The notes below the pieces were generated by a model. The model worked only from the letters and a program-made list of their open reading frames with translations, did not search any database and had not been told where the DNA came from. Positions 41,036-60,531 of a stretch of DNA of 64,000 nt are shown here, one piece after another. This DNA is from an alpha proteobacterium SCGC AAA536-G10 (GTDB taxonomy: Bacteria; Pseudomonadota; Alphaproteobacteria; Puniceispirillales; Marisalimonadaceae): the NCBI GenBank assembly GCA_905182395.1, contig CAJJBL010000022.1, positions 281-64,280 of the forward strand, given 5' to 3'. Position 1 is the stretch's first letter; each line of letters begins with the position of its first letter. Made by a program: the position numbers and the translations under genes.

Positions 41036-41112
41036 GCGCTCGTAGCTCAGCTGGATAGAGCACTAGACTACGAATCTAGGGGTCAGGAGTTCGAATCTTC
41101 TCGAGCGCACCA
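41036..41112 (+). tRNA. tRNA-Arg (anticodon ACG)
   Basis: 77-nt cloverleaf folded by hand: acceptor GCGCTCG/CGAGCGC, D-arm GCTC/GAGC, anticodon arm CTAGA-CTACGAA-TCTAG, T-arm AGGAG-TTCGAAT-CTTCT, encoded CCA. Confidence 0.92.
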
Positions 41113-41215
41113 TTTTTTTAATTTAATATCAATAAGTTAGAAAAATAGAAACTTAACTCACCTCAGTAAATACTCAGTTTTGTCATAGATTTGACTCAAT
41201 AAAACGAGTCGAATC

Positions 41216-42200
41216 ATGGGATGCATGAGAAAAAGAGGTAAATCTTGGAATGCTCAAGTAAGAGTATCTGGTTGGAGAACTTTTACTAAATCATTTAAAA
41301 CAAAATTAAGTGCTACAGAATGGGTTGCGAATTTTGAAAAAGAACTTCGTTCTAAACCTATTCCAAAGAAAGATATTAAAAATTTAAAGTTAAAAAATTT
41401 ATTTAATAAATATAAATTAGAAATTCTTCCTAAGTTAAAAAGTTATAAAATCGTTTCTTATAAATTAATAAATTTGTCTAGATTATGGTTAGGAGATATT
41501 GTTGTTATAAATTTAACAAAAAGATATTTAGAACAGTTTTGTGAAGACAGAAAATTAAAGGTTCAAGAAGGCACTGTTAAATCCGAATTGATGCTAATTA
41601 AAAGAATTTTTAAAATTGCAATTGATAAATGGAATTATGGAATACCTTTTGATGCCTTTAGTGGACATGAAATTCCTTCCTCTCACAAACCAAGAAATCG
41701 AAGAGCATCTAAAGAAAAATCAACAACTCTTATATTCAATACAGAAAAACAAAAAAACAAATACATCTCCATTATCATTCAGTTTGCTGTTGAAACTAGT
41801 ATGAGAAGATCAAAGATACTTAAACTAACTTGGAACTATATAAACTTAGAGACTAGAATTGCCTCTCTGTATGACAATAAGAATGGAGATGATGGACACA
41901 TTCCATTAACTAAAACTGCTATAAAATTATTATCTGATCTTACTCAGTCATCTGAGTTTGTATTTCCAATATCTGCTAATTGTTTAAGACTTGCATGGGA
42001 GAGATGTAGATATAAATCCAATATCAAAGGATTAAGATTCCACGATTTAAGACATGAGGCAGTTTCAAAATTTTTTTGAAATGGGATTATCTGTTCCAGA
42101 GGTTGCATTGATATCTGGTCACAAAGAAGTAAGTCAATTATTTAGATATACTCATTTAAAACCAGAGAATTTGATTGCTAAATATTCAACTATTTTTTAA
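41216..42200 (+). pseudogene. tyrosine recombinase / phage-type integrase, frameshifted before the catalytic Tyr segment
   Basis: N-terminus MRKRGKSWNAQVRVSGW; catalytic R (ETSMRRSKILKLTW) and HDLRH. The ORF stops at 42079 inside a T7 run (42071-42077). The +1 frame continues EMGLSVPEVALISGHKEVSQLFRYTHLKPE..., carrying the GH and the nucleophilic Tyr, to the stop at 42198-42200. Confidence 0.8.
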
Positions 42201-42550
42201 TGTATCAATCATGGAAAATAAATGAAATTTACAAAGTTTATAGAATATTACAAATGGTTCAAAACTAATTTTCCAACTTTAAAAGAATTGGAAAGAAAGC
42301 AGTTGGAAAAAAAACTAAAAGAATTGAAAAAGTAAAAATACAAGTAACATAACAATATTCCCAAACAACAAAGTACTATCACCAAATAAATTTTATGATG
42401 AGATTGCAAAGTCTGTTAATGACAAACTTAAACAATCAAAAAATGAAACCTTTGGTGCATTAAAAGAAACAGATGATAAATTGAATTTGCCTTGGGGAAC
42501 TTTATTTGAGATGTCTGGATATGCAGATTATTTTGAATCAATATATGAAG

Positions 42551-42694
42551 ATGGTGATGATTAATCTCATTTTAGGAATAATACTCTGCATGATTGTGAT
42601 AAAATACAATCAAGAAATAGTTCAATTTTTAATTGTATCTGGTAATATAGATTCTTTAATCACTTATTTACATAGTCTTAAAGAAACCAAATGA
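42551..42694 (+). CDS. small single-TM protein (island module gene 1; paralogue at 51850)
   Basis: MVMINLILGIILCMIVIKYNQEIVQFLIVSGNIDSLITYLHSLKETK. Conserved copy in island 2. Its stop overlaps the next ATG (ATGA). Confidence 0.45.
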   Translation: MVMINLILGIILCMIVIKYNQEIVQFLIVSGNIDSLITYLHSLKETK

Positions 42695-42861
42695 ATACTA
42701 AAGTTCCTTGTCCATATTGTAGTAGTCCAAAAGGATTTATCTATGTTCAGTCACACTACCAATGTTTGACTTGTAAGAGAGTTGTTGACGACTGTTGTGG
42801 TGGTGAAACTGTTCAATGTATAGTTCCAGTCATGACGTCAAAAAAACTAGAGATAGAATAA
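42691..42861 (+). CDS. small zinc-ribbon protein (56 aa)
   Basis: Below the ORF-track cut-off. MNTKVPCPYCSSPKGFIYVQSHYQCLTCKRVVDDCCGGE...: CxxC...CxxC. ATGA overlap with the upstream ORF, and the next ATG directly follows its stop. Confidence 0.5.
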   Translation: MNTKVPCPYCSSPKGFIYVQSHYQCLTCKRVVDDCCGGETVQCIVPVMTSKKLEIE

Positions 42862-43149
42862 ATGAGTGAGAATTTTCATTATCTAAAACAACCAATCCCA
42901 TTAGATTCTGTTTATGAAATCAAGTATTTCACAAAAGGATTTCAAGTAGATTGGAGAGATATAGGTAATGAAGGTCATTGTCCTATAAAAATTACTTATA
43001 AGGAAAATACTTTAATTGTTCATTGGAAAAATGATAGTCAATTTGGAGAAATGATTACTCATTTTGAAATTGAAGATGATGCTAACAATAATCCAATGAA
43101 TATTCTAAACCTGTTGAACTCACAGTTTAATTTGGAATGGAAAGAGTAG
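42862..43149 (+). CDS. hypothetical protein
   Basis: 95-aa ORF, tightly packed in the same-strand module. No recognised family. Confidence 0.45.
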   Translation: MSENFHYLKQPIPLDSVYEIKYFTKGFQVDWRDIGNEGHCPIKITYKENTLIVHWKNDSQFGEMITHFEIEDDANNNPMNILNLLNSQFNLEWKE

Positions 43150-43162
43150 GTTTGAATAAATT

Positions 43163-43399
43163 ATGTATTTTAAGAAAAACCATCCATGTGAAGAATGTAA
43201 TCTTCCATTCAAGACTGTCTGGAGTTGCAAGAGGACATTTGAAGATAAGGAATGGATTTTACTTTGTTATAACTGTATTCGTTATTTCAAACATCTGAAT
43301 AGGTGGAGATTTAAAACAAGACTTCAAAACATCAAAGGCTTTAAATGGTGTAGAATAAATCCGACTAAACTTGAATTACCTTTGTATGAAGTTAACTAA
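43163..43399 (+). CDS. small Cys-rich (zinc-finger-like) basic protein; decayed paralogue at 52217
   Basis: 78 aa with CEEC...C...CYNC. A second, pseudogenised copy supports that this is a real gene. Confidence 0.5.
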   Translation: MYFKKNHPCEECNLPFKTVWSCKRTFEDKEWILLCYNCIRYFKHLNRWRFKTRLQNIKGFKWCRINPTKLELPLYEVN

Positions 43400-43563
43400 T
43401 CCAGTGCGATATAGTTGGAAAAATTAAAAAAAGTATTGTACCCAAAACTAATAAAGTAATTTTAAACTTTTTCATGTAAAGTAAATAAATCCAGCAATAA
43501 GTAAGATCCAAAATAGAGTTTCCACACTCATCACTTTATAAAATAATTTAAGTTCTTGTCTCA

Positions 43564-44070
43564 TTAAATTTTATTTTTTTTAGGTTTGTTATTATGACTA
43601 TTTTGATACTTTTCAGATAATTGATTCATATTTTTAAAAAAATCAATTTCTGAAAATGCCTCACACATTCTAAGATTGTGTGTTTCAGTTTTTATTATAT
43701 TCATTTTGCTTAGATTTAAAGTTTTTCTATTTAATTCATAAGCGTAAACATTTAGACTATCTCTATAAGTCCATTTGATTTTATTTTCATCTGTAGAAAA
43801 CCTTTTTTTCTTTCGAAGAGTTGTTTGATTATTCTCACTTACTTTTATATCATCACCAATTTTACTGATATAATATATTGCTACTTTATTATTTTTAAAA
43901 TGAAATCCTATTTCAGTTGGTTTTTTACTAGGTATATATGAAGAAGGATCTATATGATCTAACTTGCAATCTAAACACTCACAAACAATTCCCTTACCAT
44001 CTACACTTCCTAAAGACGGAAAGGAATGAAGTAAGAAGATAATAGTTACTAATATAATTTTTTTATTCAT
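43564..44070 (-). CDS. hypothetical secreted protein
   Basis: Signal-peptide-like MNKKIILVTIIFLLHSFPSLGS when started at the Met at 44070. No recognised family. Confidence 0.45.
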   Translation of the reverse strand: MNKKIILVTIIFLLHSFPSLGSVDGKGIVCECLDCKLDHIDPSSYIPSKKPTEIGFHFKNNKVAIYYISKIGDDIKVSENNQTTLRKKKRFSTDENKIKWTYRDSLNVYAYELNRKTLNLSKMNIIKTETHNLRMCEAFSEIDFFKNMNQLSEKYQNSHNNKPKKNKI

Positions 44071-44413
44071 GCTCTCCACCTTTATCATTAGGATCTAACT
44101 CTATTCTCTTTCCTTGATAATAAATTGCACGACTTCTACTGGGAGTATAATATCCGCCAAAAAATTTTGGTTTTCTTTTTGCAGTTTCAAAAGTTGCAAC
44201 TGTAATAGCAATAGCACCCAATAAAAGAATATGTAGAACTGTTGTTATTCCAAATATCCACATACTGGTAAAATAAAATGAAAACATAATGCACCACATC
44301 CATGCCAAGATTTGCATTATCATATGTCTAGTATTTGTATCTGGAATATTTTTAAGTGGATTTTTATTATGATTCATAACAAAAGACCAATTATCAAAAA
44401 TGAATTTTTGCAC
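44063..44413 (-). CDS. hypothetical 2-TM membrane protein
   Basis: 116 aa, two hydrophobic helices. Overlaps the start of the downstream secreted-protein gene. Confidence 0.45.
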   Translation of the reverse strand: MQKFIFDNWSFVMNHNKNPLKNIPDTNTRHMIMQILAWMWCIMFSFYFTSMWIFGITTVLHILLLGAIAITVATFETAKRKPKFFGGYYTPSRSRAIYYQGKRIELDPNDKGGEHE

Positions 44414-44862
44414 TTAATCTCCATTAATATTGATTATATAAATTTTATTGTTAATTATTGTATGAAATACTTAGTATAATTATTCATTATGTAATTCTTA
44501 ATTTTGGAGTAGTTCCATACACCAATAAAAGAAATTAGCGCAAAAAGAAAAGGTGATAATAAACTGGATGAAGAACCTATACACATAATTTTATTATAAT
44601 TTATTTTTTCTTAATTACAAGACAGTTTCTTTAACTATTTTAATTGAACTTTAAAAGCATAATAGTTACGTAGATTATGTCTGTTAATATTTTAAAAGAA
44701 AATAATAATTCATAAAATACTCAAATGAGATATTTTGAAATAAACAGAAAATATGAACAATTGTTACCTAACAAGAATTTGTAAATATCCAAATGAATTC
44801 AATATTCATAATAGTAGTTTTAAAATAATTAATTAAGAAAAAAATACAGAAATATTAATATA

Positions 44863-45105
44863 ATGACTTTTAAGTATAATAAATTAAACGCTATATGTAT
44901 GTGGTGTAAAAGAAAAAGAAATCCTCATCCTGATTACAAAAATGAAACTATACCAACAAAAATATTCATGAGTGAAAAAGGTAGACAAATTGAACTCTGT
45001 TTTAGTTGTTATGAGGATGATAAATTTCAATCAAATAATATTGAATTTAAGAAAAACTTAGATTTTAAATTTGAAACAATGACACTTTTAAAACTATTAT
45101 CCTAA
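44863..45105 (+). CDS. small Cys-rich protein (CxxC...CxxC)
   Basis: 80 aa; CMWCKRK...CFSCYEDD zinc-ribbon-like spacing. Confidence 0.4.
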   Translation: MTFKYNKLNAICMWCKRKRNPHPDYKNETIPTKIFMSEKGRQIELCFSCYEDDKFQSNNIEFKKNLDFKFETMTLLKLLS

Positions 45106-45420
45106 CAATATTGAGATATTTTACTACTTACAATTATTTTATATAAAGTATCATCATAATAGTTATATATATTGAAAACAAATAAACTGACAAAACAAAC
45201 TCAATATTAAAGTAATTTAATCATACGATAAGTTTGAAGTTGTTTTTTAAGAAAATGCATCTGGATTTACTTCAAATATTAGATTATTAAATCGTTTGGA
45301 AACTATAAAGCAGACTAGAATAAAAAGCTGATTAATGAGAGTGTTCTTTTTATAAGAACTCTTCGCTAAATCAGTAAAAATTGAATAACATTAAACGCAT
45401 ATATAAAAAAGGTGTTTGCC

Positions 45421-45702
45421 ATGGAAAAAAAACTTTCTAGTGTTCAAAAAAAAGCATTACGAAAAAAAGGATACTCACTAAAACCTGTTGTCATGATCGG
45501 TCAGCACGGTCTTACAGATGCTGTTCTTGCTGAGATTGATACCGCTCTCAATGCTCATGAACTGATTAAAGTTCGTATCAGAGGAGCAGATAAAAATAAA
45601 CGAACTGAGCAATTTACAAAAATTGAACACCAGTTGAATGCCGAGGTAGTGCATCAAATTGGTGGGATTACTGTCTTGTACCGACCTACAACCGCTCTTT
45701 AA
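45421..45702 (+). CDS. yhbY: YhbY/CRM-domain RNA-binding protein
   Basis: LSSVQKKALRKKGYSLKPVVMIGQHGLTDAVLAEIDTALNAHELIKVRI...VLYRP parallels E. coli YhbY. Visibly G+C-richer than its neighbours. Confidence 0.8.
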   Translation: MEKKLSSVQKKALRKKGYSLKPVVMIGQHGLTDAVLAEIDTALNAHELIKVRIRGADKNKRTEQFTKIEHQLNAEVVHQIGGITVLYRPTTAL

Positions 45703-45706
45703 AAAA

Positions 45707-45777
45707 CAATGATATCCAAAGAAAAATATCAATTACTCTTTACCTTTAATAATCATTTCGATTAAACTATGAGTATG
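45707..45777 (+). repeat. junction element copy 1 (A-part truncated, B-part complete)
   Basis: ..ATGATATCCAAAGAAAAATATCAATTACTCTTTACC-18 nt-TAAACT-ATGAGT-ATG. -35-like 45739-45744, -10-like 45763-45768, ATG 45775. Confidence 0.8.
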
Positions 45778-46251
45778 AAAAAATTATTCGTTATATTATC
45801 ATTTTTAATTTCAATCACCTGTCTGTCATCACAAAGTTGGGCATTGAAAGAAAAATGGTTTCCCACAGATAAACCAAATTGCCTTGTTTGGAATTCAGAT
45901 CCTCAACCAGAAGAAACTGTTAAGTGGTCAGGAGAATGTTTGAATGGAAAAGTCAATGGTATCGGCACTTTATCATGGTCAATTGGAGATCAGTATATAG
46001 GTGAATACAAAAATGGTAACATGAATGGACAAGGGACTTATAGTTGGCAAAAGGGAGACCAATACACAGGTGAGTGGAAAAATAATCATATATATGGACA
46101 AGGTACTTTTACTTTTGTAAATGGAGATAAATTTGAAGGTGAATGGAAAGATGATCTGATGCATGGACAAGGAACTTATACTTTTGTAAATGGTAAAAAA
46201 ATAGAAGGTATATGGGAAAATGGAAAAAAAGTAGAAGTGACTAAAACCTAA
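45769..46251 (+). CDS. secreted MORN-repeat protein
   Basis: Signal peptide MKKLFVILSFLISITCLSSQSWA (from ATG 45775). About 5 tandem YxGEWKNGxxxGxG MORN repeats. Confidence 0.75.
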   Translation: MSMKKLFVILSFLISITCLSSQSWALKEKWFPTDKPNCLVWNSDPQPEETVKWSGECLNGKVNGIGTLSWSIGDQYIGEYKNGNMNGQGTYSWQKGDQYTGEWKNNHIYGQGTFTFVNGDKFEGEWKDDLMHGQGTYTFVNGKKIEGIWENGKKVEVTKT

Positions 46252-46304
46252 TCTATAAACTAAGATATTATCTAATCAATTAATCCTAAGAGTTAAAAAC
46301 TTGA

Positions 46305-46700
46305 ATGCCTAACACTTCAGAAGATATAGTCTATAAACACCATAACGCAATTAATACTCAAGATGAACGAGAATATCTCGATAGCGTAAAGTTTCCTTTT
46401 ACCTATCAGAATTATAATGGTGTTTCTATCACAATTAAAGATGAAGAAGACTATAGAACTAATTATCAAATGCCATGGGATATAATAAAGGATACTGAAT
46501 CAAACTGGTCCCATACGGAAATGGATAAAATTGAAGAAGTGGCACGTTCCAATTCGTCTGTGGTTTTTAAACTTTTAATGAGAAGAATAAATAAATCAGG
46601 CAATACAGATCTCATTATTCAAGTGATTTGGATTGCTGTCTCTACACAAGGGAAATGGGGTATCCAATTTAGGCATAACCTTGGTATTCCTACCCCTTAA
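46305..46700 (+). CDS. hypothetical protein
   Basis: 131-aa ORF filling the cassette. No recognised family. Confidence 0.4.
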   Translation: MPNTSEDIVYKHHNAINTQDEREYLDSVKFPFTYQNYNGVSITIKDEEDYRTNYQMPWDIIKDTESNWSHTEMDKIEEVARSNSSVVFKLLMRRINKSGNTDLIIQVIWIAVSTQGKWGIQFRHNLGIPTP

Positions 46701-46711
46701 AATGGAAATAC

Positions 46712-46750
46712 AAAAACTAATCTGTAAACCATGATAGTATCCAGAGAAAA
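46712..46750 (+). repeat. junction element copy 2 (A-part; B-part degenerate up to about 46797)
   Basis: AAAAACTAATCTGTAAACCATGATAGTATCCAGAGAAAA, 12 nt after the upstream stop. Confidence 0.75.
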
Positions 46751-46860
46751 CCATTAATTATTTTTTAACAATAATAACTACTCTAATTAAACTTAGATAT
46801 ATTTATAATTAACAAGTATCAACAGCAATATCATCTCAGTTTTTAAAATAAGGATATAGT

Positions 46861-47211
46861 ATGTCTTTTTTTATTATAAAGATTTTTATAACTGCAATAT
46901 TAATTGTATCAATAAGTGAAATTGCAAAATTTAATGACCGATTAGGTGGAATTATTGGTGCAATGCCTATAACAACATTTTTAATTTTATTTTGGTTGTA
47001 TTATGAAAATAGTTCTTTAGAAAAAATTTCTAATCATATGTCATATACTTTGTTATATGTCATACCAACATTGCCAATGTTTATAACTTTTCCTTACTTC
47101 ATAAATAAATTTGGATTTTATATATCAATAATTCTAAGTATTATATTAACAATTTTATTTGTAATTATAGTACATATTATTTCTAAGAAATTTGGATATA
47201 AATTAATATAA
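46861..47211 (+). CDS. hypothetical 4-TM membrane protein
   Basis: 116 aa, strongly hydrophobic. Confidence 0.45.
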   Translation: MSFFIIKIFITAILIVSISEIAKFNDRLGGIIGAMPITTFLILFWLYYENSSLEKISNHMSYTLLYVIPTLPMFITFPYFINKFGFYISIILSIILTILFVIIVHIISKKFGYKLI

Positions 47212-47255
47212 TAAGATTACTAACAATTTTGCTAAAAAGATGATATGGAGTAAAA

Positions 47256-47498
47256 TTATTTATTTTTAGAAATTTTTAATTCTTTTTTAATTTTTTCTTC
47301 TAAATGTCCTATCATTATTCTTCTCATATACTCTGCTCTTGCTAAATCAGTAAAAGAGTATTCTCTTATATCCTCATTACTAATTCTAATAGAAAAGTTA
47401 TAAAAAGCACCACTCTTTTTTATAGTTGAAGCACTGCCAGAAGCGATTTTATTAGGACTTACAAGTGCGCCAAATTTAGTTTCAATTATATTTGTCAT
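47256..47498 (-). CDS. hypothetical 80-aa protein, paralogue A (second copy at 56138-56374)
   Basis: About 66 of the first 75 residues are identical to the 56138 ORF by hand alignment. Strong GAGGAG Shine-Dalgarno 7 nt upstream of the ATG on the minus strand. Confidence 0.6.
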   Translation of the reverse strand: MTNIIETKFGALVSPNKIASGSASTIKKSGAFYNFSIRISNEDIREYSFTDLARAEYMRRIMIGHLEEKIKKELKISKNK

Positions 47499-47570
47499 AA
47501 AATTATCTCCTCACAACATTTCTATATATTATAATATCAAATAATAAATTTAATCAATGTTTATAATATT

Positions 47571-47984
47571 TTAAAAATTAATCGTTTCTATAAGTAATTG
47601 AATTGAAAAAACTACGAGACTTAAATAAGTAAATAACATTCCAGAAATTCTTAAAAAAGGATTTGATTGGTAAAACGCAAAACAAATTGCATGTGCCAAT
47701 CTTCCATATGAGAAAACTAGACTAATTACTAATAGATAGTTAAAAGAAGATTTTCCTGTAATTTCTAAAATCAATAAAAGGATCAAGAAAATGGGAGTGT
47801 ATTCAGAAAAGTTTCCGTGTGCTCTAACATTTCTTTGTAACTTTTCCTCTGATATTTCTTTGTCCATTTTAAAAAGTAGTTTCATAACAGGACTACCCCT
47901 TAAATACCCAATACGAAATGATAAAAACAAATAAAATAAAGTAAAAATTGATGCAAAAATTGGAGTTAATGTAAGAGTGTTCAC
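47571..47984 (-). CDS. MAPEG-family membrane protein
   Basis: 137 aa, 4 TM helices; RAHGNFSEYTPIFL and GRLAH motifs typical of MAPEG/YecN. Confidence 0.65.
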   Translation of the reverse strand: MNTLTLTPIFASIFTLFYLFLSFRIGYLRGSPVMKLLFKMDKEISEEKLQRNVRAHGNFSEYTPIFLILLLILEITGKSSFNYLLVISLVFSYGRLAHAICFAFYQSNPFLRISGMLFTYLSLVVFSIQLLIETINF

Positions 47985-48063
47985 TATTTATCTAACTAAT
48001 TAAAATTTAATTTTAATACTTTCTTTATCTCAAAATATTATACATTTACAAAGAAGCGTAGTC

Positions 48064-48148
48064 AAAACCTAATATATAAACAACAATAGTATCTGATGAG
48101 AAATATCAATTACTCTTTAACTTTTATTTTGATTAAACTATGAGTACA
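48064..48148 (+). repeat. junction element copy 3 (full; 6-nt deletion in the promoter spacer; ATG decayed to ACA)
   Basis: AAAACCTAATATATAAACAACAATAGTATCTGATGAGAAATATCAATTACTCTTTAAC-12 nt-TAAACT-ATGAGT-ACA. Confidence 0.75.
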
Positions 48149-48219
48149 AATTTTATTTTTAACTATTCATTGCTATGGTTTTTAAAGTTTTTTAAATTCT
48201 TGCTAATTAAAGAAAGAAG

Positions 48220-48600
48220 TTGAATATATTGATTGCTGATATTGTATTAATATTTCATTTTGGCATTGTTATTTTCATAACATTTGGTTTATTTTTAATA
48301 CCAATTGGTTACAAATTTGGTTGGATTTGGATTAAAAATTTAAAATTAAGAATATGTCATTGTGGAATGATTATTTTTATTACTTTAGAAACGTTATTGG
48401 GAATTACTTGCCCACTGACTTCTATAGAAAATAATTTACGTGGAATTAATATGTCTACGTCATTTATATCTTATTGGATTAATCAAATTATTTATTGGAA
48501 TTTCCCGACCCAATTTTTTATCATTTTATATTCTATTATATTAGTATGGACTTTATTGATGTGGAAACTCTTTCCACCTATGATTAAAAATAGTGTTTAA
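48220..48600 (+). CDS. DUF2784-like membrane protein
   Basis: ADIVLIFHFGIVIFITFG...GITCPLTSIENNLRG resembles the DUF2784 pattern (..CPLT.LE..LR). TTG start. Confidence 0.5.
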   Translation: MNILIADIVLIFHFGIVIFITFGLFLIPIGYKFGWIWIKNLKLRICHCGMIIFITLETLLGITCPLTSIENNLRGINMSTSFISYWINQIIYWNFPTQFFIILYSIILVWTLLMWKLFPPMIKNSV

Positions 48601-48627
48601 AACCTCACTATCATAAAATGATAAGTA

Positions 48628-48717
48628 AAGACTAATCTATAAATTTAATAAGCATCATTAGATGAATTTCAATTACACTTTACCTTTTTAAACTATTTTG
48701 ATTAGACTATGTATATG
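48628..48717 (+). repeat. junction element copy 4 (full)
   Basis: AAAGACTAATCTATAAA...TTTCAATTACACTTTACC-18 nt-TAGACT-ATGTAT-ATG. -35-like 48679-48684, -10-like 48703-48708, ATG 48715. Confidence 0.8.
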
Positions 48718-49614
48718 AAAAATAAAGATTGGATATTAGTGATTTTACTTGGTCTCTTTTGGGGATCAAGTTTCTTTTTTGTTGAGATGCTTTTAAAGTA
48801 TCTAAGTCCCTTTATGATCGTTTATCTTAGAGTGTCAATTGCATCTATTTTTTTAATTGTGTTTATAATCATTCGAGGTACTAAATTTAAACTATCACTC
48901 AAAAACCTTTTTAATCTTTTTATAATGAGTTTATTGAATAACATTTTTCCTTTTCTTCTTATAACTTTTGGTCAACAAACTACGACAGGCGGTTTAGCAT
49001 CAATTTTAAATGCAAACACATCTTTTATTGGAATACTTTTAGCATCATTATTTTTACCTCTAGAGCGACTAAATTTTTATAGATTAATAGGAGTTTCAAT
49101 TGGAGTTTTAGGAGTAATAATCGCTATTGGTTATCAAAATATTATTCAATTAAATGATGATGATTTAGGTAAATATTTAATTTTAATTGCCACCCTTTCA
49201 TATGGTTTTGCAGGAGTATGGGGAAAATTAAAACTACAAAATTTTACTCCTATTATCGCTGCCACAGGTATGTTAACAATGAGCACTATAATTCTTACTC
49301 CATACGCTTTTACAATGCACTTAGAAGAAATATATTCTTTAAACTTTTTTATTCTTAAATATGCATTTGTTTTTGCAATAATTTGCTCGGTATTTGCTTA
49401 TTTTTTATATTTTAAAATACTTGAAAGTGCAGGAGCAGGAAATCTATTAATTTGTACTATAATTATTCCTCCTTCATCAATCTTCCTAAATGCTTTTATA
49501 TTAGATCAAATTATTACTTTTAATGAATGTTTGGGATTAATAATCATTATATTAGGTCTAATTATATTAGATGGTCGCTTAATAAACAAACATACCCCCA
49601 CCTCCCAAAAATGA
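48715..49614 (+). CDS. EamA/DMT-family transporter
   Basis: About 10 TM helices, two EamA halves. Start taken at the element-borne ATG 48715 (ORF track: 48709). Confidence 0.75.
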   Translation: MKNKDWILVILLGLFWGSSFFFVEMLLKYLSPFMIVYLRVSIASIFLIVFIIIRGTKFKLSLKNLFNLFIMSLLNNIFPFLLITFGQQTTTGGLASILNANTSFIGILLASLFLPLERLNFYRLIGVSIGVLGVIIAIGYQNIIQLNDDDLGKYLILIATLSYGFAGVWGKLKLQNFTPIIAATGMLTMSTIILTPYAFTMHLEEIYSLNFFILKYAFVFAIICSVFAYFLYFKILESAGAGNLLICTIIIPPSSIFLNAFILDQIITFNECLGLIIIILGLIILDGRLINKHTPTSQK

Positions 49615-49615
49615 C

Positions 49616-49659
49616 AAAAAAACTCAACCTATAAAATACGATAGTATCCAGAGATAAAT
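49616..49659 (+). repeat. junction element copy 5 (A-part only)
   Basis: AAAAAACTCAACCTATAAAATACGATAGTATCCAGAGATAAAT begins 2 nt after the EamA stop, then diverges into unrelated, G+C-richer sequence. Confidence 0.75.
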
Positions 49660-49810
49660 TTTCTAAGTGGGAAGGGTTCTATTCGCGCTATTTATCTTCT
49701 TATTCTTTATATTATTAAATCAATTGAAGTATTAATTAATTTTAAATATTATTTTCTGTATATAAGAATAGAGAATTAAGATAAATAAAATATAAATTAT
49801 TGGATAGAGC

Positions 49811-50257
49811 ATGGATAAACAAAACTTATTTGACAAATATGGTGGTGTACCAACTATTAAAGCGATATTAGAAAAATTTTATAAAGATTTATTAAGTCTT
49901 AGATGGACAAGAAAAATGTTTGTAAATGTTAATATGGATAAACTTATATTACATCAAATTCAATTTGTTAGTTTTGCCATGGGTAAACCAGAAAGTGAAT
50001 TTGATGATAAAAGATTAAGAGAAGGTCATGCAGGTCTGGGAATAACGGAAGCACAATTCTAAGAAACAGTTGGTATACTAGTAAAAGTTCTTACAGACTT
50101 CAAAGTTAAGTTTGATGACGTCAAAACTATAGGTGATGCTATAAACACTAAGAAACATTTAATAGTAAATGTCCCAGGAATTAAAAAATCAGCCAAAAAA
50201 GTATTAAAAAAATTAAGAGAAAAAGAAAAATACAATAATACAAAACTTATTTTATAG
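49811..50257 (+). pseudogene. group I truncated haemoglobin (trHbN-like) with in-frame TAA
   Basis: LFDKYGGVPTIKAILEKFYKDLL...HQIQFVSFAMG...LREGHAGLGITEAQF-TAA(50060-50062)-ETVGILVKVLTDFKV... The globin fold continues in the same frame after the stop, down to TAG at 50255-50257. Confidence 0.7.
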
Positions 50258-50271
50258 TTAATCTTATTTGT

Positions 50272-50455
50272 AGAACTGCCAGTAAGTATTAATCATCCAA
50301 TATCAACTAAAGATGTAACTTCAAAATGTTTCTTAGATATGTTGTCAGTCTTTTCAGAGTTTGAAACTAATTTAAGAAAAGAAAGACAGATGGAAGGCAT
50401 TACAAAAGAATTGGATATTGGTCGTGCAAATGTTTATCCTGCATTGGAGGTTTAA
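50272..50455 (+). pseudogene. serine recombinase (resolvase/invertase) remnant
   Basis: ..INHPISTKDVTSKCFLDMLSVFSEFETNLRKERQMEGITK-ELDIGRANVYPALEV*. This is the end of the catalytic domain and E-helix fused to the last helix of the HTH. No N-terminal catalytic Ser region. Confidence 0.6.
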
Positions 50456-50709
50456 TATTAAAAGAGTAGGTAATGATTGCACATCTGTCTATCATTCATA
50501 GTAGTGTTAAATTCTAAAATAATGGAAAAGAAATGCATAAAACAATAAAAATAATTATCGGTACCGTTCTCATCATATACATTGTTCTGGTTGTTATGCA
50601 GTTAACAGGAATAAGTTTATTTTAAGAAGTAATAGTTACTAATTAATATAAACCAGAAGTGTTAAAATTAAGAAATTATTAATCCCCTACTGCTTAAAAC
50701 TGACAACTA

Positions 50710-50799
50710 GAAACTAATCTATAAATCACGATATTATCTAGAAAGAAATATCAATTACTCTTTACCTTTAATATGTATTTTGATTAAACTTTGACAATG
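50710..50799 (+). repeat. junction element copy 6 (full)
   Basis: GAAACTAATCTATAAATCACGATATTATCTAGAAAGAAATATCAATTACTCTTTACC-18 nt-TAAACT-TTGACA-ATG. The ATG at 50797 opens only a 13-codon ORF. Confidence 0.8.
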
Positions 50800-51020
50800 A
50801 CAAAATATCTTAAAAATAACCTCAGTTTAGTTATATAATTTCACCCAACTTAATATAACAATTTGAAACAAGAGAATTTTACATACAAATCTAGGAAAAA
50901 AGTTTGATAGAAATGTTCTAAAGATGATGAATTATCTAAAGAAATTTTTAAAAGGTTAAAAAGAAACTATTGGGAAAAAGTAGATTTAGATAGAGAAGTT
51001 CATAAGTATATAAAATAATT

Positions 51021-51536
51021 ATGTTTAGGAAAGGTTTAGACACTATGGGAATGATGAGAAGTAGATACATACCACATTGTTGTTTTGTATATTTGACTGA
51101 AGAATTAAAATATCTAACCACAATAACTAAATGTGATGAGGAATGGATTAGAAATGATATGGAAAATGTAGAAGAATTTAAAAGAAGAATTGAAAGTGGC
51201 GAAATGTTTGAAGATGAAATACACCCATATGAAATAAGTCAAAAAGGAGATGATTTTTACCTTTATGAATGTGAACCAATTAAAAATGAAAGGTATAAAG
51301 AATTACTACAAAAGTATGGAAAATTAGAAGAATACATTAATGAAGAAAAACCTATTGATGTATTTTTTGGAATTGGAGAAGGTAGAATCTATGTTGAAGA
51401 GGGTAAGTTTAATACCAAAGAAGAAGGAGGGTCACATATCTATGATGAAAATGGTTATGGAACAGAAAATCCAAAATATAGATTTACAAAATTAAAAAAA
51501 ACGGAAAAATTATTTAGAAAAGTTAGATTAGGTTAA
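51021..51536 (+). CDS. hypothetical acidic protein
   Basis: 171-aa ORF. No recognised family. Confidence 0.4.
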   Translation: MFRKGLDTMGMMRSRYIPHCCFVYLTEELKYLTTITKCDEEWIRNDMENVEEFKRRIESGEMFEDEIHPYEISQKGDDFYLYECEPIKNERYKELLQKYGKLEEYINEEKPIDVFFGIGEGRIYVEEGKFNTKEEGGSHIYDENGYGTENPKYRFTKLKKTEKLFRKVRLG

Positions 51537-51537
51537 A

Positions 51538-51587
51538 CAAAAACCTAATCTATAAACCACGATAGTATCCAGAGAGAAATATTAATC
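51538..51587 (+). repeat. junction element copy 7 (A-part only), last element before the island 1 right end
   Basis: CAAAAACCTAATCTATAAACCACGATAGTATCCAGAGAGAAATATTAATCA, directly after the stop at 51534-51536. Confidence 0.8.
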
Positions 51588-51700
51588 ATACACCAATTAA
51601 ATGCCCTCAGATTGTCACACAGATTTGACACAGTAAGGCAATAAAAGGTACTATTATTCAATAATAAATCTTTAAGAAAATAAGGGTTTAAAGGGGTCAA

Positions 51701-51762
51701 CTGGATAGAAAACTAGACTACGAATCTAGAAGGAAGGAGTTAGAATTTTCTCTAACGCACCA
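51701..51762 (+). pseudogene. degenerate partial copy of tRNA-Arg (att direct repeat; D-loop to CCA)
   Basis: CTGGATAGAAAACTAGACTACGAATCTAGAAGGAAGGAGTTAGAATTTTCTCTAACGCACCA versus tRNA 41051-41112: 52/62 identical by hand alignment. The 5' acceptor half is missing and the T-arm and acceptor pairings are broken. Confidence 0.8.
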
Positions 51763-51849
51763 TTTCTGATTATTTTTTTACAAAACTAAATCTTCAATTT
51801 AGAACTTTATTTGATATGTCTTTAAGAACAGATTATTTTAAAGGAATAT

Positions 51850-52006
51850 AATGAGATGGTCATGATTAGTTTTTATTTTACTTTTAGGAATTATTCTTTG
51901 TTTAATTATAATAAATTATAATCAAGAAATAGTTCAATTCTTAATTGTATCTGATAATATAGATTCGTTAATCAACTATCTACAGAGTTTTAAAGAAACC
52001 AAATGA
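51850..52006 (+). CDS. small single-TM protein (paralogue of 42551-42694)
   Basis: MRWSWLVFILLLGIILCLIIINYNQEIVQFLIVSDNIDSLINYLQSFKETK. Same ATGA stop/start overlap with the next ORF as in island 1. Confidence 0.45.
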
Positions 52007-52200
52007 AATATAAAACACTAGAAGAAATACAAAAAAATTCCGTATGGATAAAGTTACAATCTCATGGCACTGAAAAAGAACAACTTGATAAACAATTCTT
52101 GTCTCTTACAGAAGATGAAAAGATTGTTGCAATTGACTTATTTGAGTCTTTGAAAGTTGTGATGGAAAATGTCCTTAAAGAAAAGAAAACTCATCATTAG
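52003..52200 (+). CDS. hypothetical protein
   Basis: 65-aa ORF translationally coupled (ATGA) to the small TM gene. Confidence 0.4.
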   Translation: MKYKTLEEIQKNSVWIKLQSHGTEKEQLDKQFLSLTEDEKIVAIDLFESLKVVMENVLKEKKTHH

Positions 52201-52216
52201 ATAGTATCAATTTATT

Positions 52217-52457
52217 ATGTATTTTAAAAAAAAAATATTTATGTGAAAACTATAATTTTCCTTTTAAGACTGTTTGGAATTGTAGGAAGACGATCGAGGA
52301 GAAAAACTAGATATTACTTTATTATAACTATATCCGTATTTTTAAACATCAATATCGATGGCGATGCAAATCTCAATTACAAAATATAAAAGGATTTAGG
52401 TGATGCGTATTAAGTCCTTCTAAAATGAAATTATCACTATATGAAATCAATGTTTAA
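52217..52457 (+). pseudogene. decayed copy of the Cys-rich gene 43163-43399
   Basis: Nucleotide-level alignment along the whole gene. Frame disrupted in the 5' A-run, Trp codons changed to TAG and TGA, and three Cys TGT codons changed to TAT. Confidence 0.7.
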
Positions 52458-52592
52458 TCTTGCTCTTCTTTGGAAGATACAAAAGTATATCAGATATATC
52501 TGTTATTTTATTATTATTGTAATGATGATTTTAATATGGATTAAATTGTCTTCTCAAATTTAATTTGAGATGTAATAAGTTAATTTATTTTC

Positions 52593-53177
52593 TTATTGAG
52601 TTTTATCATCTTTTATTTTCAAAATTGGATTATGAATCCACAAGCTTATTTTTCTAAAATATAACCAATTAAAAAGTAATATAGTTAAAGACATCATTAG
52701 AAAAATAATAAGAGTAAAGTTAGGAGCAATTTGTCTATTAAAAACTAACTCGTTACTTTCTATATAATGCAGAATTAATAAGATAAAATATAGCAAGGAC
52801 ATAAAAATACAAAAAATTGATAGAATTCTACTTATTCTAAACTTAAAGTTACTCTTGTTTAAAATGTTATCAGAGTATGTCTTTTTATTAATCCATAAAT
52901 AGACACTTCCAAAAGTAACCCAATTAATTAGGGTAATAATAAAAATGGATACAATTATATCAATGGTTAACCCAAGTATGTACTGAATAAATAAGTAGTC
53001 ACCAATTTTTTTAGAAAAGTTATCAATATATGAGTTAACAAACATAATTGTTTTTAAAACAATTAAAACTAATAACATTAAAGGAATCAAACGACTCATT
53101 CTAAATAAAAATATTGTCATTTTTAAATCATAATCAAAAAAGAAAAAAAACTTAACTAAAAAATAATATCTATCCAA
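52593..53177 (-). CDS. hypothetical polytopic membrane protein
   Basis: 194-aa ORF, 4-5 TM helices. The true start is probably an internal Met. Confidence 0.45.
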   Translation of the reverse strand: MDRYYFLVKFFFFFDYDLKMTIFLFRMSRLIPLMLLVLIVLKTIMFVNSYIDNFSKKIGDYLFIQYILGLTIDIIVSIFIITLINWVTFGSVYLWINKKTYSDNILNKSNFKFRISRILSIFCIFMSLLYFILLILHYIESNELVFNRQIAPNFTLIIFLMMSLTILLFNWLYFRKISLWIHNPILKIKDDKTQ

Positions 53178-53344
53178 TCTTTTTCTAATCGTTTTTGATT
53201 TTAGATAATCAGTTTGTATATTGAATATGATTTTTTAAAAAAATATGTCATATTTACATAGTACTAATTAAAATAGTCAAAAATTAATGTTAATTTTTTA
53301 TAATTTAATTGTATTAAAAGTTAGAAATTTTCTAAAGGAAATAC

Positions 53345-53524
53345 ATGGGTACTAGTAATAAAAAGTTTCAAGTTATCTACGATGGAGATTGCGTCATATA
53401 TAAGTTTGAAACAAGAAAAGAAGCAGAAGAATATATGGATGGCTGGAAAGGGAATAACTTAGTATTTCCTCTTCTCACTATTAAACAACGTTTACCAGCA
53501 AGTGGTTTAGGAATATTCATATAA
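53345..53524 (+). CDS. hypothetical small protein (59 aa)
   Basis: Below the ORF-track cut-off: MGTSNKKFQVIYDGDCVIYKFETRKEAEEYMDGWKG... It is the only open frame in an otherwise empty 850-nt stretch. Confidence 0.3.
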   Translation: MGTSNKKFQVIYDGDCVIYKFETRKEAEEYMDGWKGNNLVFPLLTIKQRLPASGLGIFI

Positions 53525-53723
53525 AATTAAATGAACCTATTACTGGTCATGACAGAGTTTTAATAATTAGTTATAATCACTTATTAGATAAAAGACCGTA
53601 AACTCTAGATGCAAATGAAACACTATAGGAGATCCTAAGAAAGTTAAATGTGTCTCATTACATTGGTGTATTAAATGATCAAATGGTAATATATTAAAAT
53701 TAAATTTTATTACTGGAGTTACA

Positions 53724-53897
53724 ATGGATTTTAAATATGCACAAAGTTGGTTATTAGGAGTTGTTTGTTTTATCTATGGTATTTATAGAATTATTGGTGG
53801 AACAAATGAAACATTTAATTGGGTAGATGTTGCTGCAATAATAGGATTTTGCTATTCAATATATGTAACAAAAATTGCAGGTTCAAAAGAGAAATAA
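53724..53897 (+). CDS. hypothetical small 2-TM protein (57 aa)
   Basis: Below the ORF-track cut-off: MDFKYAQSWLLGVVCFIYGIYRIIGG...AAIIGFCYSIYVTKI. Confidence 0.3.
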   Translation: MDFKYAQSWLLGVVCFIYGIYRIIGGTNETFNWVDVAAIIGFCYSIYVTKIAGSKEK

Positions 53898-54029
53898 GTT
53901 TAAAAAAACATACTCCCATTTTTCTATTTATAAAAATAATTAGATTTTATTAAGTGTTATTTGATAAACAGTGAGTATGAAAATATATATTGGTTTTAAA
54001 ACTATTTTTTTTATAATAGAAAATGAATA

Positions 54030-54227
54030 ATGTCATCAAATGAACAAACTATAACATGTCACTTTTGTTTTGAAACCTTTGAAATTGATCTAGGAATAGA
54101 CCAAAATTTTAGTGGCCATAACACTGAGATCTTTGACTGTGCAATATGTTGTAATCCTAACAAGGTAGACACTGAAATTTATGATGGCGAAGTTAGTTCT
54201 GTAACTGTTAACGATGGAAACGAATAA
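54030..54227 (+). CDS. CPXCG-motif cysteine-rich protein
   Basis: ITCHFCFETFEIDL...EIFDCAICCNPNKV: the two-Cys-pair layout of the CPXCG family. Confidence 0.6.
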   Translation: MSSNEQTITCHFCFETFEIDLGIDQNFSGHNTEIFDCAICCNPNKVDTEIYDGEVSSVTVNDGNE

Positions 54228-54253
54228 AAAGACCTCAATATTATAAACTTTTA

Positions 54254-54340
54254 CAAAAATCTAATCTAACAATCACGATAGTTTCCAAAATTAAACATCA
54301 ATCTTATCTTTACCTCTTACAACTATTTTAATTAAAAAAC
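54254..54340 (+). repeat. junction element copy 8 (full, diverged)
   Basis: CAAAAATCTAATCTAACAATCACGATAGTTTCCAAAATT...ATCTTTACC-18 nt-TAAAAA. -35-like 54309-54314. Confidence 0.7.
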
Positions 54341-54505
54341 ATAAAATAATTAGAAATAGATCGTGTAATTATTTATCTTTGATTTAAGAATTAGATTATG
54401 TACGATGATGATAAAACAGAAATATTAAATGTAACGCATGTTAATAATTCAAATTTGGATTAATCTAACTATTAAAAATTAAACAAGATAATTAGGAGTA
54501 ATTTA

Positions 54506-54814
54506 ATGTCAATTTCACTTCAAGTGTTATACCCAATAACAGAAACAACAAACTTTGATTATGATTATTATTTTTCTAAACATATGAAACTTGTAAAAGA
54601 TACGTTTGGCGACCATTTAGATGATACCCTTGTTATAAAAGGTATTGCTGGTGGACCTGATAAAACTCCAGCATATTACGCTATTGCAACGATGATTTTC
54701 AAAAATCAATCCGCTATGGATTTAGCGTTATCAGGAGCAAGCCCCGTACTTGAAGATATTCCAAATTTTACTAATACGGAACCAGTTATGTTAATAGGCG
54801 AGGTCGTATCCTAA
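54506..54814 (+). CDS. EthD-domain protein (TIGR02118-like)
   Basis: 102 aa. LQVLYPITETTNFDYDYYFSKHMKLV...AIATMIFKNQSAMDLAL...FTN pattern of the EthD family. Confidence 0.6.
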   Translation: MSISLQVLYPITETTNFDYDYYFSKHMKLVKDTFGDHLDDTLVIKGIAGGPDKTPAYYAIATMIFKNQSAMDLALSGASPVLEDIPNFTNTEPVMLIGEVVS

Positions 54815-54918
54815 TTTGTTATATAAACCTAGAATGATCAAATTTTATGCATTTATAATATCAATGATAATTAAACTAATTTAGTTTCAAACATAACCAA
54901 TGGATAAGTTAACTTATA

Positions 54919-55401
54919 TTAATATTTTAGTATAAAGTAAGAACAAATTAATATTGTTATGACAGTTATAGAAAGCGATCTTCTTAAGAAAATATACCAA
55001 TTAGGAAATAACAAAATTTTATTATAAAATTCATCTACTAACTGACAAATCAAATATCCTAATGATAAAATTATTAAACTAATTCTTTTATCAATTAATA
55101 AAGTTACTATGCCTAGAAGCGCAGGTGTGATTGACCAAATCAACATAAAAATTTTAAATTGATTTGTAAAAGCATTCATTTTGTTTTGATTTAATATTAT
55201 ACCCCAATAGACACTTCCTAAAAAAGTTAAAATGATTACACCATAATTTTTAGGAATGTTAATAGGAAAAATAAGGTTTTCTTGGTTAAACCATAAATCT
55301 AATAATCCAATAATAAATGGAATTAGTCCCATAAAGCCAAGTAAAATAATTGTCTTTTCATAACTCTTTAATTGATAAATATTATTGATTAGTTTTTTCA
55401 T
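54919..55401 (-). CDS. DUF3429-like membrane protein
   Basis: 160 aa, about 5 TM helices; LLGFMGLIPFI N-terminal signature. Confidence 0.5.
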   Translation of the reverse strand: MKKLINNIYQLKSYEKTIILLGFMGLIPFIIGLLDLWFNQENLIFPINIPKNYGVIILTFLGSVYWGIILNQNKMNAFTNQFKIFMLIWSITPALLGIVTLLIDKRISLIILSLGYLICQLVDEFYNKILLFPNWYIFLRRSLSITVITILICSYFILKY

Positions 55402-55560
55402 ATTGAAATCTACTGAATTTATTATCTACTACTATAAAGTTTTTTAGAAAGTTATTTATTTAATCAGATAGAAAAATAACAGAATAATAATCAATAGTAA
55501 CGAAAAATTTATCCAAACATAGCGCTAAATCGTAATACTAATTTCTTCAAAAATGATAAT

Positions 55561-55652
55561 CAAAATCTAATTAGAGATAAACATTGTTTCTAGACTTAAA
55601 TATTAATCTTATCTTTACCTTTCTCAATCATTTTGATTAAACTATGAGTATT
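55561..55652 (+). repeat. junction element copy 9 (A-part diverged, B-part complete, ATG decayed to ATT)
   Basis: CAAAATCTAATTAGAGATAAACATTGTTTCTAGAC...ATCTTTACC-18 nt-TAAACT-ATGAGT-ATT. -35-like 55614-55619, -10-like 55638-55643. Confidence 0.75.
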
Positions 55653-55702
55653 AAAAAAAGTATAAGTTGAATATCTATTTTCGCGCTTTGGAGAATTATA
55701 TT

Positions 55703-55870
55703 ATGAGCAAACAGACTATAGGTTGGATAATAGTTGGTAGTTGTTTACTATGGGGTTTGTTAAGAGCTGGAGATTTGGTTGAACCTAATTTTGTTATAAA
55801 TTTTTTAGCAATTGGGGGTTTTTGTTTAGGAATTCACTTAACAAAAAATAATGAAGATAAAGAAGAATAA
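55703..55870 (+). CDS. hypothetical small 2-TM protein
   Basis: MSKQTIGWIIVGSCLLWGLLRAGD...FLAIGGFCLGIHL. ATG at 55703 preferred over the TTG at 55667. Confidence 0.35.
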   Translation: MSKQTIGWIIVGSCLLWGLLRAGDLVEPNFVINFLAIGGFCLGIHLTKNNEDKEE

Positions 55871-56137
55871 TTGTCGTCAATCATAGAATGATAGGTAAAT
55901 TATTATGGATAAAGAATCTCAAGAAAAACTTCGTACTTGGTGGGATGATGGAGACAGTAAATTAAAAAAATCTCTGTATATTTTTTTATGTCTGCAAATA
56001 CTTTTAGGAATTATCTGGTTTATTGAATATATTTTCATATAAAATAAGTTCATATTAAAACAAAAACAATCAACACTTAATCTTTAACCAATAACAGCAA
56101 ATATAATATCAATTATTCTTAAATTTTATAATTGTTT

Positions 56138-56374
56138 TTACTTAGGTTTTTTTATTTCTTTTTTAATTTTTTCTTCTAAATGTCCTATCATTATTCTTCT
56201 CATATACTCTGCTCTTCCCAAATTAGTAAAAGAATATTCTCTTATGTCATCATTACTAATTCTAATAGAAAAGTTATAAAAAGCACCATTCTTTTTTATG
56301 CTTGAAGCACTCCCAGAAGCAATTTTATTAGGACTTACTAGTGTACCAAACTTGGTTTCAGTTATGTTTGCCAT
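56138..56374 (-). CDS. hypothetical 78-aa protein, paralogue B (see 47256-47498)
   Basis: MANITETKFGTLVSPNKIASGSASSIKKNGAFYNFSIRISNDDIREYSF...; GGTG/AGAGGTG SD-like sequence upstream. Confidence 0.6.
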   Translation of the reverse strand: MANITETKFGTLVSPNKIASGSASSIKKNGAFYNFSIRISNDDIREYSFTNLGRAEYMRRIMIGHLEEKIKKEIKKPK

Positions 56375-56493
56375 AAAAATTACACCTCTATATAGTATTA
56401 ATTATTAATCTAATATTAAAAATTAAATTAAATCAAACATAATCTCTATCAAGGTAAATATTGTAAGCTTTAATATAAGCAAATATTTTTGAT

Positions 56494-57638: not shown

Positions 57639-57690
57639 ATAAAAAGAATTAATTAACTAAACATTTACTTACTAAGTATTGTTCTTTTAA

Positions 57691-60519: not shown

Positions 60520-60531
60520 AAGAAACCTTTT

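Follow-up and report, generated by a model that had tools for sequence, protein, structure and literature searches.

Tandem accretion of mobile elements is known from the ICESt1/CIME arrays of Streptococcus thermophilus, which include cis-mobilizable remnants. In the model put forward for Prochlorococcus, transfer RNA (tRNA) genes serve as seeds for islands: incoming elements push older ones outward, and degenerate integrases and partial tRNAs remain (Hackl et al., bioRxiv, 10.1101/2020.12.28.424599). The same authors report related elements in Alphaproteobacteria, treat a replication module as an optional part of a tycheposon, and give around 40 nt as the typical length of the attachment (att) block in the tycheposons of Prochlorococcus. 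Accretion at tRNA or tmRNA genes has likewise been described for the ssrA islands of Dehalococcoides (PMC3146451), the Asn-tDNA islands of Klebsiella (PMC4891358) and CGI48 of Shewanella (PMC8978831), and the additive flexible island at tRNA-Lys of 'Ca. Methylopumilus' contains recurring 20-bp repeats of the tRNA end (PMC10872708). Here, we analyze a stretch of 64,000 nt (the window; contig C22, positions 281–64280) from the genome of a low-GC SAR116 bacterium (Puniceispirillales), whose assembly (G000) comprises 1.43 Mb in 123 contigs and is 85% complete. We conclude that the tRNA-Arg(ACG) locus in this window very probably records tandem accretion by site-specific recombination. An integrative element of 10,650 bp (element 1; 41113–51762) directly follows the tRNA gene and ends with a partial copy of it, and the remnant of a related element comes next. 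This is the ordinary, well-known accretion mechanism in a new host group and with a new integrase lineage; the mechanism itself is not new.

The locus shares with tycheposon islands a streamlined marine host, an inward-facing tyrosine integrase beside the island tRNA, and small cargo elements between full and partial tRNA copies. In element 1, the integrase faces inward from the tRNA-proximal end, and the cargo consists of small transporters and enzymes. A difference is that no primase, helicase, polymerase or excisionase domain was found in element 1 or in five related elements. The target, tRNA-Arg(ACG), is not among the seven tRNA targets of Prochlorococcus, and the best matches of the integrase are generic temperate-phage integrases at 33–35% identity, which do not place it in the tycheposon integrase lineage. 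Because no hallmark genes for replication or mobility were found, we do not file the element as a tycheposon.

As in the other accretion arrays, a new element stands beside a partly deleted relative, with internal att copies and integrase-less remnants. Unlike those arrays, the SAR116 elements carry no conjugation or mobilization genes. The older remnant is not of the cis-mobilizable CIME type, since an att site (attR) borders it on the proximal side alone and no distal att is present on C22 or at the end of C122, the contig that holds the far core flank.

The partial tRNA copy is an attR

The tRNA-Arg(ACG) gene, which a first-pass annotation of this DNA had described as intact, is the sole tRNA that ARAGORN calls in the window (Table 1). 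No other ACG isoacceptor was found in the assembly, and 100% identical copies are present in four relatives (G003, G007, G013, G017). A repeat search pairs 41047–41115 with 51697–51765 (84% over 69 nt), and the copy matches the tRNA at E=5.8e-14 in a BLAST search of the whole assembly. The first-pass annotation had counted 52 identical positions out of 62 from the D loop to the CCA end, a figure that we reproduced exactly; homology extends 5′ to 51697 (TCAA versus TCAG). It had also described the copy as lacking its 5′ part, with a broken T arm and acceptor. Indeed, tRNA positions 1–11 are missing, the T loop carries C57A, and two changes fall in the 3′ acceptor strand. A functional second tRNA at 51.7 kb was looked for, and none is called there by ARAGORN or by the Rfam tRNA model at E≤10. 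The copy retains an unaltered anticodon stem-loop part, with 8 of the 10 changes located on its 3′ side (2/29 in positions 16–44 versus 8/33 in positions 45–77; Fisher p=0.09). The side of attR that is needed to rebuild the tRNA upon excision is the one that has drifted most.

We compared the gpt–tRNA-Arg region of 12 relatives and 26 integrase loci, the loci being titled as SAR116 cluster single-cell genomes and metagenome-assembled genomes (MAGs). A copy of tRNA positions 16–77 also occurs in G003, G013, G017 and G021 and at the integrase-anchored loci L052, L056, L057 and L061 (some of these are the same contigs), 4.9–10.6 kb downstream of the intact tRNA. In five low-GC SAR116 genomes other than G000, this 62-nt attR bounds elements of 4.9–7.1 kb. 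Every such copy is preceded by the same sequence (...AATAAATCTGTGAGAAAATAAGGGTTTAAAGGGGTCAA and then CTGGATAGAGC...), in which an element-specific A replaces the G found at position 15 of the tRNA. Element 1 is bounded by the complete tRNA on one side and a direct repeat of the tRNA 3′ part on the other, as are integrative elements that target tRNA genes. The partial tRNA is a true attR and not a duplication.

Table 1. Features of the tRNA-Arg(ACG) locus in window coordinates
Feature	Position	Strand	Description	Basis
tRNA-Arg(ACG), attL	41036–41112	+	Functional; att identity block 41051–41112 (tRNA positions 16–77)	ARAGORN; Rfam tRNA, 66.4 bits
Left (P′) arm of element 1	41113–41215	+	ATCAATAAGTTA, like the consensus for integration host factor (IHF), at 41128–41139; degenerate tandem arm-type repeats 41175–41199	Alignment of 13 left ends
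Tyrosine integrase pseudogene	41216–42200	+	N-terminal 287 codons 41216–42079; C-terminal 41 codons in +1 frame to about 42200	
Post-integrase module of element 1	42506–43399	+	62-aa transmembrane open reading frame (ORF), 56-aa zinc ribbon, 95-aa ORF, 78-aa Cys-rich ORF	
Cargo of element 1	43400–51536		YhbY/CRM, MORN, MAPEG, DUF2784, EamA transporter, truncated globin, orphans	Pfam, nhmmer
Right (P) arm of element 1	51537–51700	+	Half junction repeat 51537–51587; arm-type repeats 51608–51633	Alignment of 8 right ends
attR	51701–51762	+	Non-functional copy of tRNA positions 16–77, 52/62 identical	
Older-element remnant	51763–52451	+	Copy of transmembrane ORF about 51802–52007; 65-aa ORF 52003–52200; Cys-rich pseudogene 52224–52451	blastn, tblastn
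Older cassette array	52452–64000		EthD, DUF3429, CIA30, ricin-type lectin, SRAP, 560-aa orphan, CBS, GST, others	Pfam

The integrase is of the phage type and frameshifted

The first-pass annotation placed an integrase gene after the tRNA. The gene is there, on the tRNA strand and starting 104 nt past the CCA, and its ORF at 41216–42079 matches the Phage_integrase family (PF00589) at 7.6e-15; what had been missed is that it is a frameshifted pseudogene. An extra T in the T7 run at 42071–42077 shifts the frame (G003 has TTCTTT at the homologous site), and three-frame translation shows the last 41 codons, with the GH...RYTH motif and its catalytic Tyr, resuming in the +1 frame. HDLRH is also present, so that the catalytic Arg...His-x-x-Arg...Tyr series is found, though in a pseudogene. 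Intact orthologues of 327 aa occur in G013, G017, G021 and G004.

An intact orthologue matches the phrog_1 integrase at 5.5e-54. Matches to Xer models are far below their cut-offs, and the integron-integrase model gives 32 bits (cut-off, 265). Over its full length, the integrase is 33–35% identical to those of temperate Ralstonia and Pseudomonas phages, and it is an ordinary phage-type tyrosine recombinase. Its position is also constant: in 21 of the 26 loci, it lies about 105 nt 3′ of a tRNA-Arg (ACG in 11, CCG in 8, TCG in 2).

Arm sites and crossover

Tandem TTTGACACAG repeats precede attR and also stand between the tRNA and the integrase start. In the P′ arm, the repeat is in the same orientation, ~60 nt past the CCA and ~15–20 nt before the integrase start codon, and it is conserved down to integrases that are 49–54% identical (L065, L071). 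The element 1 version reads CAGTTTTGTCATAGATTTGACTCAA, compared with a family consensus of CAGTTTTGACACAGATTTGACACAG. In the P arm, the first repeat copy is mutated, and a conserved AATAAATCT.T.AGAAAATAAGGGTTTAAAGGGG leads into the core. About 85 nt upstream of the core, CAGATTTTGACACAGATTTGACACAGTAAGGCAG is kept even beside an integrase only 50% identical (L067), and conservation of both arms with TTTGACACAGATTTGACACAG extends to elements whose integrases have only about 50% identity. The left arm also has an IHF-like motif of the WATCAANNNNTTR type at 41128–41139. These repeats are laid out like the arm-type sites on the P and P′ arms of a lambda-like att, and their position and conservation suggest that the integrase binds them.

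The T stem provides a natural marker for the crossover. Two alleles of the working tRNA-Arg(ACG), GGAG/CTTC and GGGG/CCTC, are linked by compensatory changes (L056/G017 versus G019; L057, L061). The G019 tRNA is GGGG/CCTC, the working tRNA of G017 is GGAG/CTTC, the G017 attR is GGGG/CCTC, and the left flanks of G017 and G019 are identical. Integration therefore swaps the T-stem allele, the 3′ part of the working tRNA being brought in by the element, and the pattern puts the crossover 5′ of position 53 and 3′ of position 15.

Hybrid copies were found in a set of seven metagenome contigs (L087, L089, L093, L094, L096, L097, L099), selected by a search pattern that demanded an intact left half of attR. 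In these, attR positions 16–44 are identical to the gene and positions 45–77 are about 30% decayed. Uniform drift cannot explain 39 unchanged positions beside about 30% decay. The hybrids point to recombination of incoming elements with an old att copy, or to the loss of an element through recombination between two att copies. The crossover most likely lies in the anticodon stem-loop (positions 28–44), a site bracketed rather than mapped; the sequence there, CTAGA-CTACGAA-TCTAG, is symmetric and shaped like a tyrosine-recombinase core.

The att repeat had been singled out as unusually long. It does cover 62 nt, from the D loop to the CCA, and the 62–66 nt of SAR116 elements are long beside the 'typically around 40' of tycheposons (Hackl et al., bioRxiv, 10.1101/2020.12.28.424599), yet within the known kind. 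Length is not peculiar to this locus, however. At L069 (tRNA-Arg TCG) positions 12–77 are repeated and at L071 (CCG) positions 17–69+; at the more distant L065 (CCG), the repeat comprises positions 30/33–77 only (45–48 nt), which is the classical extent, anticodon loop through CCA. Extension of the repeat 5′ as far as the D loop is a trait of the low-GC SAR116 lineage and not an anomaly of this locus.

Integrase-free, single-element and tandem alleles

The sister-genome comparison proposed in the first-pass annotation yielded integrase-free, single-element and tandem alleles. Two relatives have precise empty sites: the 60 nt after the G019 tRNA are the 60 nt after the G013 attR, and what follows the tRNA in the complete genome G007 is found again after attR in G021, L057 and the metagenome contigs L088 and L098.

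In G000, the post-integrase module recurs after attR without an integrase, as had been claimed. Positions 42497–42695 are 80% identical to 51802–52007, and 43160–43390 are 71% identical to 52214–52445. The second copy of the 78-aa Cys-rich (zinc-finger) gene has two in-frame stops and three Cys-to-Tyr changes. Sequence past attR joins the homologue of 42497 onward directly; the P′ arm, the integrase and about 1.36 kb are missing. Three metagenome contigs (L087, L089, L097) preserve more. There, a truncated but recognizable element left end, TTTTTAATATCAAAAAGTTAAAAGAAT, stands between attR and the remnant (homologue of 52003–52345). This stump indicates that the module is the leftover of a second element and not an internal duplication.

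Other stacks exist. L073, from the single-cell genome AG-911-J10, has two left ends in succession, their integrases truncated to 66 and 31 residues, along with att copies; L059, another contig of the same cell, has an intact tRNA–integrase pair. In G002:C89, an element left end comes after attR. The entire tandem arrangement, with attR flank and remnant, is also present in the sister species G003 at 88–93% identity to G000, and the G003 integrase has lesions of its own (a stop, a deletion and changes of frame). We therefore date the second integration to before the G000/G003 split. The conserved right arm, shared attR, integrase-free alleles and truncated relative after attR all support the earlier proposal of successive integrations at one tRNA.

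Insertions on the 5′ side of the same tRNA were seen in G021 (L042, 2101–2134), G004 (L045) and G020 (L051, 5615–5654). In these, a fragment with tRNA positions 1–35/40 and the upstream flank has been displaced by 2–9 kb, and the inserts have no integrase. By eye, their ORFs look P-loop kinase- and sulfotransferase-like in G021, and like a 1626-aa helicase/restriction protein with a regulator in G020.

Content and present state of element 1

Six elements could be compared (G000, G003, G013, G017, G021, L057), and the integrase alone is common to all. A pair of genes encoding 65 and 64 aa is conserved in the five others and absent from element 1 of G000. Neither protein of the pair has a Pfam, PHROG or NCBIfam match, and the same holds for the post-integrase ORFs; the sequence pattern of the 64-aa protein gives the impression of a ribbon-helix-helix protein. 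Variable cargo of the related elements includes DsrE, an auxin-efflux-like permease, a LAGLIDADG/intein-like protein and DUF6994. The LAGLIDADG/Hom_end protein is a 374-aa ORF in the G017 element (L040) with weak similarity to intein-splicing domains. Domain scans of the compared SAR116 elements found no phage, replication or transfer genes.

Element 1 itself appears to be an immobilized fossil, with a frameshifted integrase and mutations in both arm sites. Its P′ arm repeats depart from the family at 5 of 34 otherwise near-invariant positions, and its first P-arm repeat has two changes. Since the element is old, frameshifted and mutated in its arms, an excised circle is unlikely to be present in G000. 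The hybrid tRNA that excision would rebuild has a cloverleaf less stable by 8.4 kcal/mol and is without the conserved T-loop C. We considered that excision would destroy the tRNA, but ARAGORN still calls the hybrid, and the claim is reduced to a tRNA that is probably impaired. We infer that excision would now be costly, so that accretion would act as a ratchet.

Alternative explanations

A single integration beside a pre-existing, non-mobile variable region could produce a similar picture if the module after attR were an internal duplication of element 1 genes. No integrase, P′ arm or distal att survives beyond attR in G000, and in other genera no such module separates the cassette array from the tRNA or attR. 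However, the module copies are only 71–80% identical, compared with 88–93% for G000–G003 orthologues, so the duplication would have to predate the species split. The truncated left end before the same module in L087, L089 and L097 and the stacked, truncated integrases of L073 also argue for a second element, and we consider duplication within one element very improbable. Plain duplication and decay of a tRNA gene, without any mobile element, has a negligible chance of being correct. The second copy is tRNA-derived and on the same strand, as duplication would have it, yet its start is fixed at position 12/16 in all genomes, and one and the same conserved arm, with integrase-type repeats, stands before it each time; moreover, its presence and absence follow those of the integrase.

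Element 1 might instead still be mobile and the array dynamic, with the T7 frameshift being an assembly error or overcome by +1 slippage of the ribosome on UUU_UGA. The lesion consists of one surplus T within a homopolymer, TTT TTT TGA closes the zero frame, and the +1 frame continues into the conserved ...RFFEMGLS...; moreover, the anticodon stem-loop part of attR is unchanged. The context (42065–42082) resembles a prfB-type shift site, where a +1 slip of tRNA-Phe before the stop would restore FFEMGLS. Against mobility stand the changes in the repeats of both arms, the loss of the 65- and 64-aa gene pair, the weakened tRNA that excision would leave and the sister species, in which the same insertion has an integrase broken independently and more heavily. 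Given the mutated arm sites and the broken G003 orthologue, decay is likelier than programmed slippage, and we give continued mobility a very small chance.

Tandem accretion thus remains the reading that we favor, although several observations weigh against it or restrict its reach. No third att site that would close the sequence beyond attR ('island 2') was found by blastn-short to E=50 or by an nhmmer profile of arm plus core in the whole assembly, where att searches matched just the two known sites and the TCG isoacceptor; the Rfam tRNA model at E≤10 likewise gave no third site. Relatives have no distal copy closing 'island 2' either, nor does the end of C122. The far boundary of 'island 2' and its origin as one element are therefore unproven. 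Beyond about 52.45 kb it does not appear recognizably element-derived, and most of it looks like an older cassette array. The first-pass annotation had the older element stranded and eroding from 51763 onward; this holds for a decayed remnant of about 0.7 kb, and the rest is cassette array. In addition, the integrase diverges between genera (about 79% at the nucleotide level) to an extent similar to the flanking core genes, so long vertical residence with occasional loss, not frequent transfer, could explain part of its distribution. Finally, an exact-pattern scan of viral contigs for the left half of attP/attR returned 0 hits, and no attP contig was found there.

Extent of the island and its distal array

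Core genes engB, yidC, rnpA and gpt lie upstream of tRNA-Arg, and the position of the hotspot (gpt–tRNA-Arg) is constant across at least three genera. The G+C content is about 29–33% in the core and 23–29% in the island. The cassette array continues to the end of contig C22, 970 nt beyond the window, and homology with the complete genome G007 identifies the end of contig C122 as the core right flank. The island therefore spans at least 41113 to about 64250, with its distal junction unassembled. It measures 17–23 kb in four genus-g2 genomes with both flanks mapped and at least 23 kb in G000. Homologues of the SRAP, CIA30, GST, EthD and DUF3429 genes of the array sit, in shuffled order, in the corresponding island of other genera, whose array directly adjoins the tRNA or attR.

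Two assembly matters touch this locus. Same-genus MAG assemblies break within the tRNA, at position 55 or with a start at 23 (ends of G001:C15 and G002:C96, start of G002:C125), as multiple copies of the att repeat would lead one to expect. A contig from a MAG titled Planktomarina (Rhodobacterales; L060, CAJIZD010000003.1) carries the SAR116-type tRNA-Arg(ACG) at 100% and the integrase at 88%; it is probably a mis-binned SAR116 contig and not a case of transfer.

Junction repeats between cassettes

From 45668 on, the cargo genes of element 1 are separated by same-strand junction repeats of ~110 nt. There are 12 copies in 45668–60536, starting at 45668, 46692, 48059, 48607, 49621, 50689, 51531, 54261, 55551, 57689, 58900 and 60409. 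They part single genes and are always on the plus strand, whatever the orientation of the genes. By nhmmer, the repeat occurs in this island alone within the whole assembly; in the complete genome G007, all full-length copies are inside the homologous tRNA-Arg island, and the two other hits are weak and partial. Junction repeats also bound both indels that distinguish G000 from G003 (48143–50711 and 58984–60429).

The boundary between parts A and B of the repeat (45725–45736, 48102–48113, 50747–50758) shares a 12–13-mer, AATATCAATTAC, with the left arm of the element (41125–41139). In the left arm of intact elements, AATATCAATTAC lies ~13 nt past the CCA and fits the IHF consensus WATCAANNNNTTR; in L096 and L091, it lies just before the right arm. 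Its alignment score was matched by 14 of 2000 shuffles. An attC-like hairpin was considered for the junction repeats and ruled out, as RNAalifold found no consensus fold in 22 of them. With no attC-type consensus structure and an integrase so far below the integron-integrase cut-off, the system is not an integron. Even so, the island might be an integron-like platform in which recombination at junction repeats exchanges single genes between the array and the integrase elements. We regard this as unlikely; if true, integrase elements would shuttle cassette sets between cells.

Discussion

We propose that low-GC SAR116 hosts small (5–10 kb), cargo-carrying integrative elements with a phage-type tyrosine integrase. 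The circular form would have an attP consisting of a P arm with two tandem TTTGACACAG sites, a tRNA copy of 62–66 nt from D loop to CCA, and a P′ arm in which an IHF-like site is followed by the same two arm-type repeats just upstream of the integrase gene. Recombination, most probably within the anticodon stem-loop, would exchange the 3′ part of the gene for the copy on the element. This would create attL, with a working tRNA, and move the displaced former 3′ part to the far end as attR. At the G000 locus, the older element would have integrated first and then lost its P′ arm and integrase. Before G000 and G003 diverged, a second, related element (41113–51762) would have entered the tRNA and pushed the remnant outward. 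Its immobilization would have come later, through the +1 frameshift, mutations in the arms, absence of the small gene pair and drift of attR.

The arrangement of attP and integrase has a parallel among phages. In the Ralstonia phage Anchaing, a 3′ fragment of a tRNA, from the anticodon stem through the CCA, is found about 130 nt 5′ of int and oriented as in the SAR116 elements, giving the same attP–int layout. Integration of the phiRSA1 type uses tRNA-Arg(CCG) and a 45-nt core. Unlike these phages, the SAR116 elements are without structural or replication genes, and their identity block is extended 5′ to the D loop. The 'Ca. Methylopumilus' island is alike in being a tRNA-anchored hotspot with a constant position across genera, small accessory genes and repeats of the tRNA end. 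The SAR116 locus differs in that the integrase family, both att arms and the integrase-free alleles are defined explicitly, and its repeat is three times longer.

SAR116 belongs to the abundant bacterial clades of the surface ocean. A SAR116 pangenome paper presents the variable region of these genomes as an O-antigen-type/glycosylation island and never mentions integrases. We found no description of the tRNA-Arg locus in that paper, and, among the papers searched, none that links 'tycheposon' and 'SAR116' substantively. Our analysis indicates that low-GC SAR116 has a tRNA-anchored accretion hotspot of the Prochlorococcus kind. With explicit sequence definitions of the integrase family, the 62-nt core and both arm sites, these elements can be tracked in metagenomes and are open to biochemical testing.

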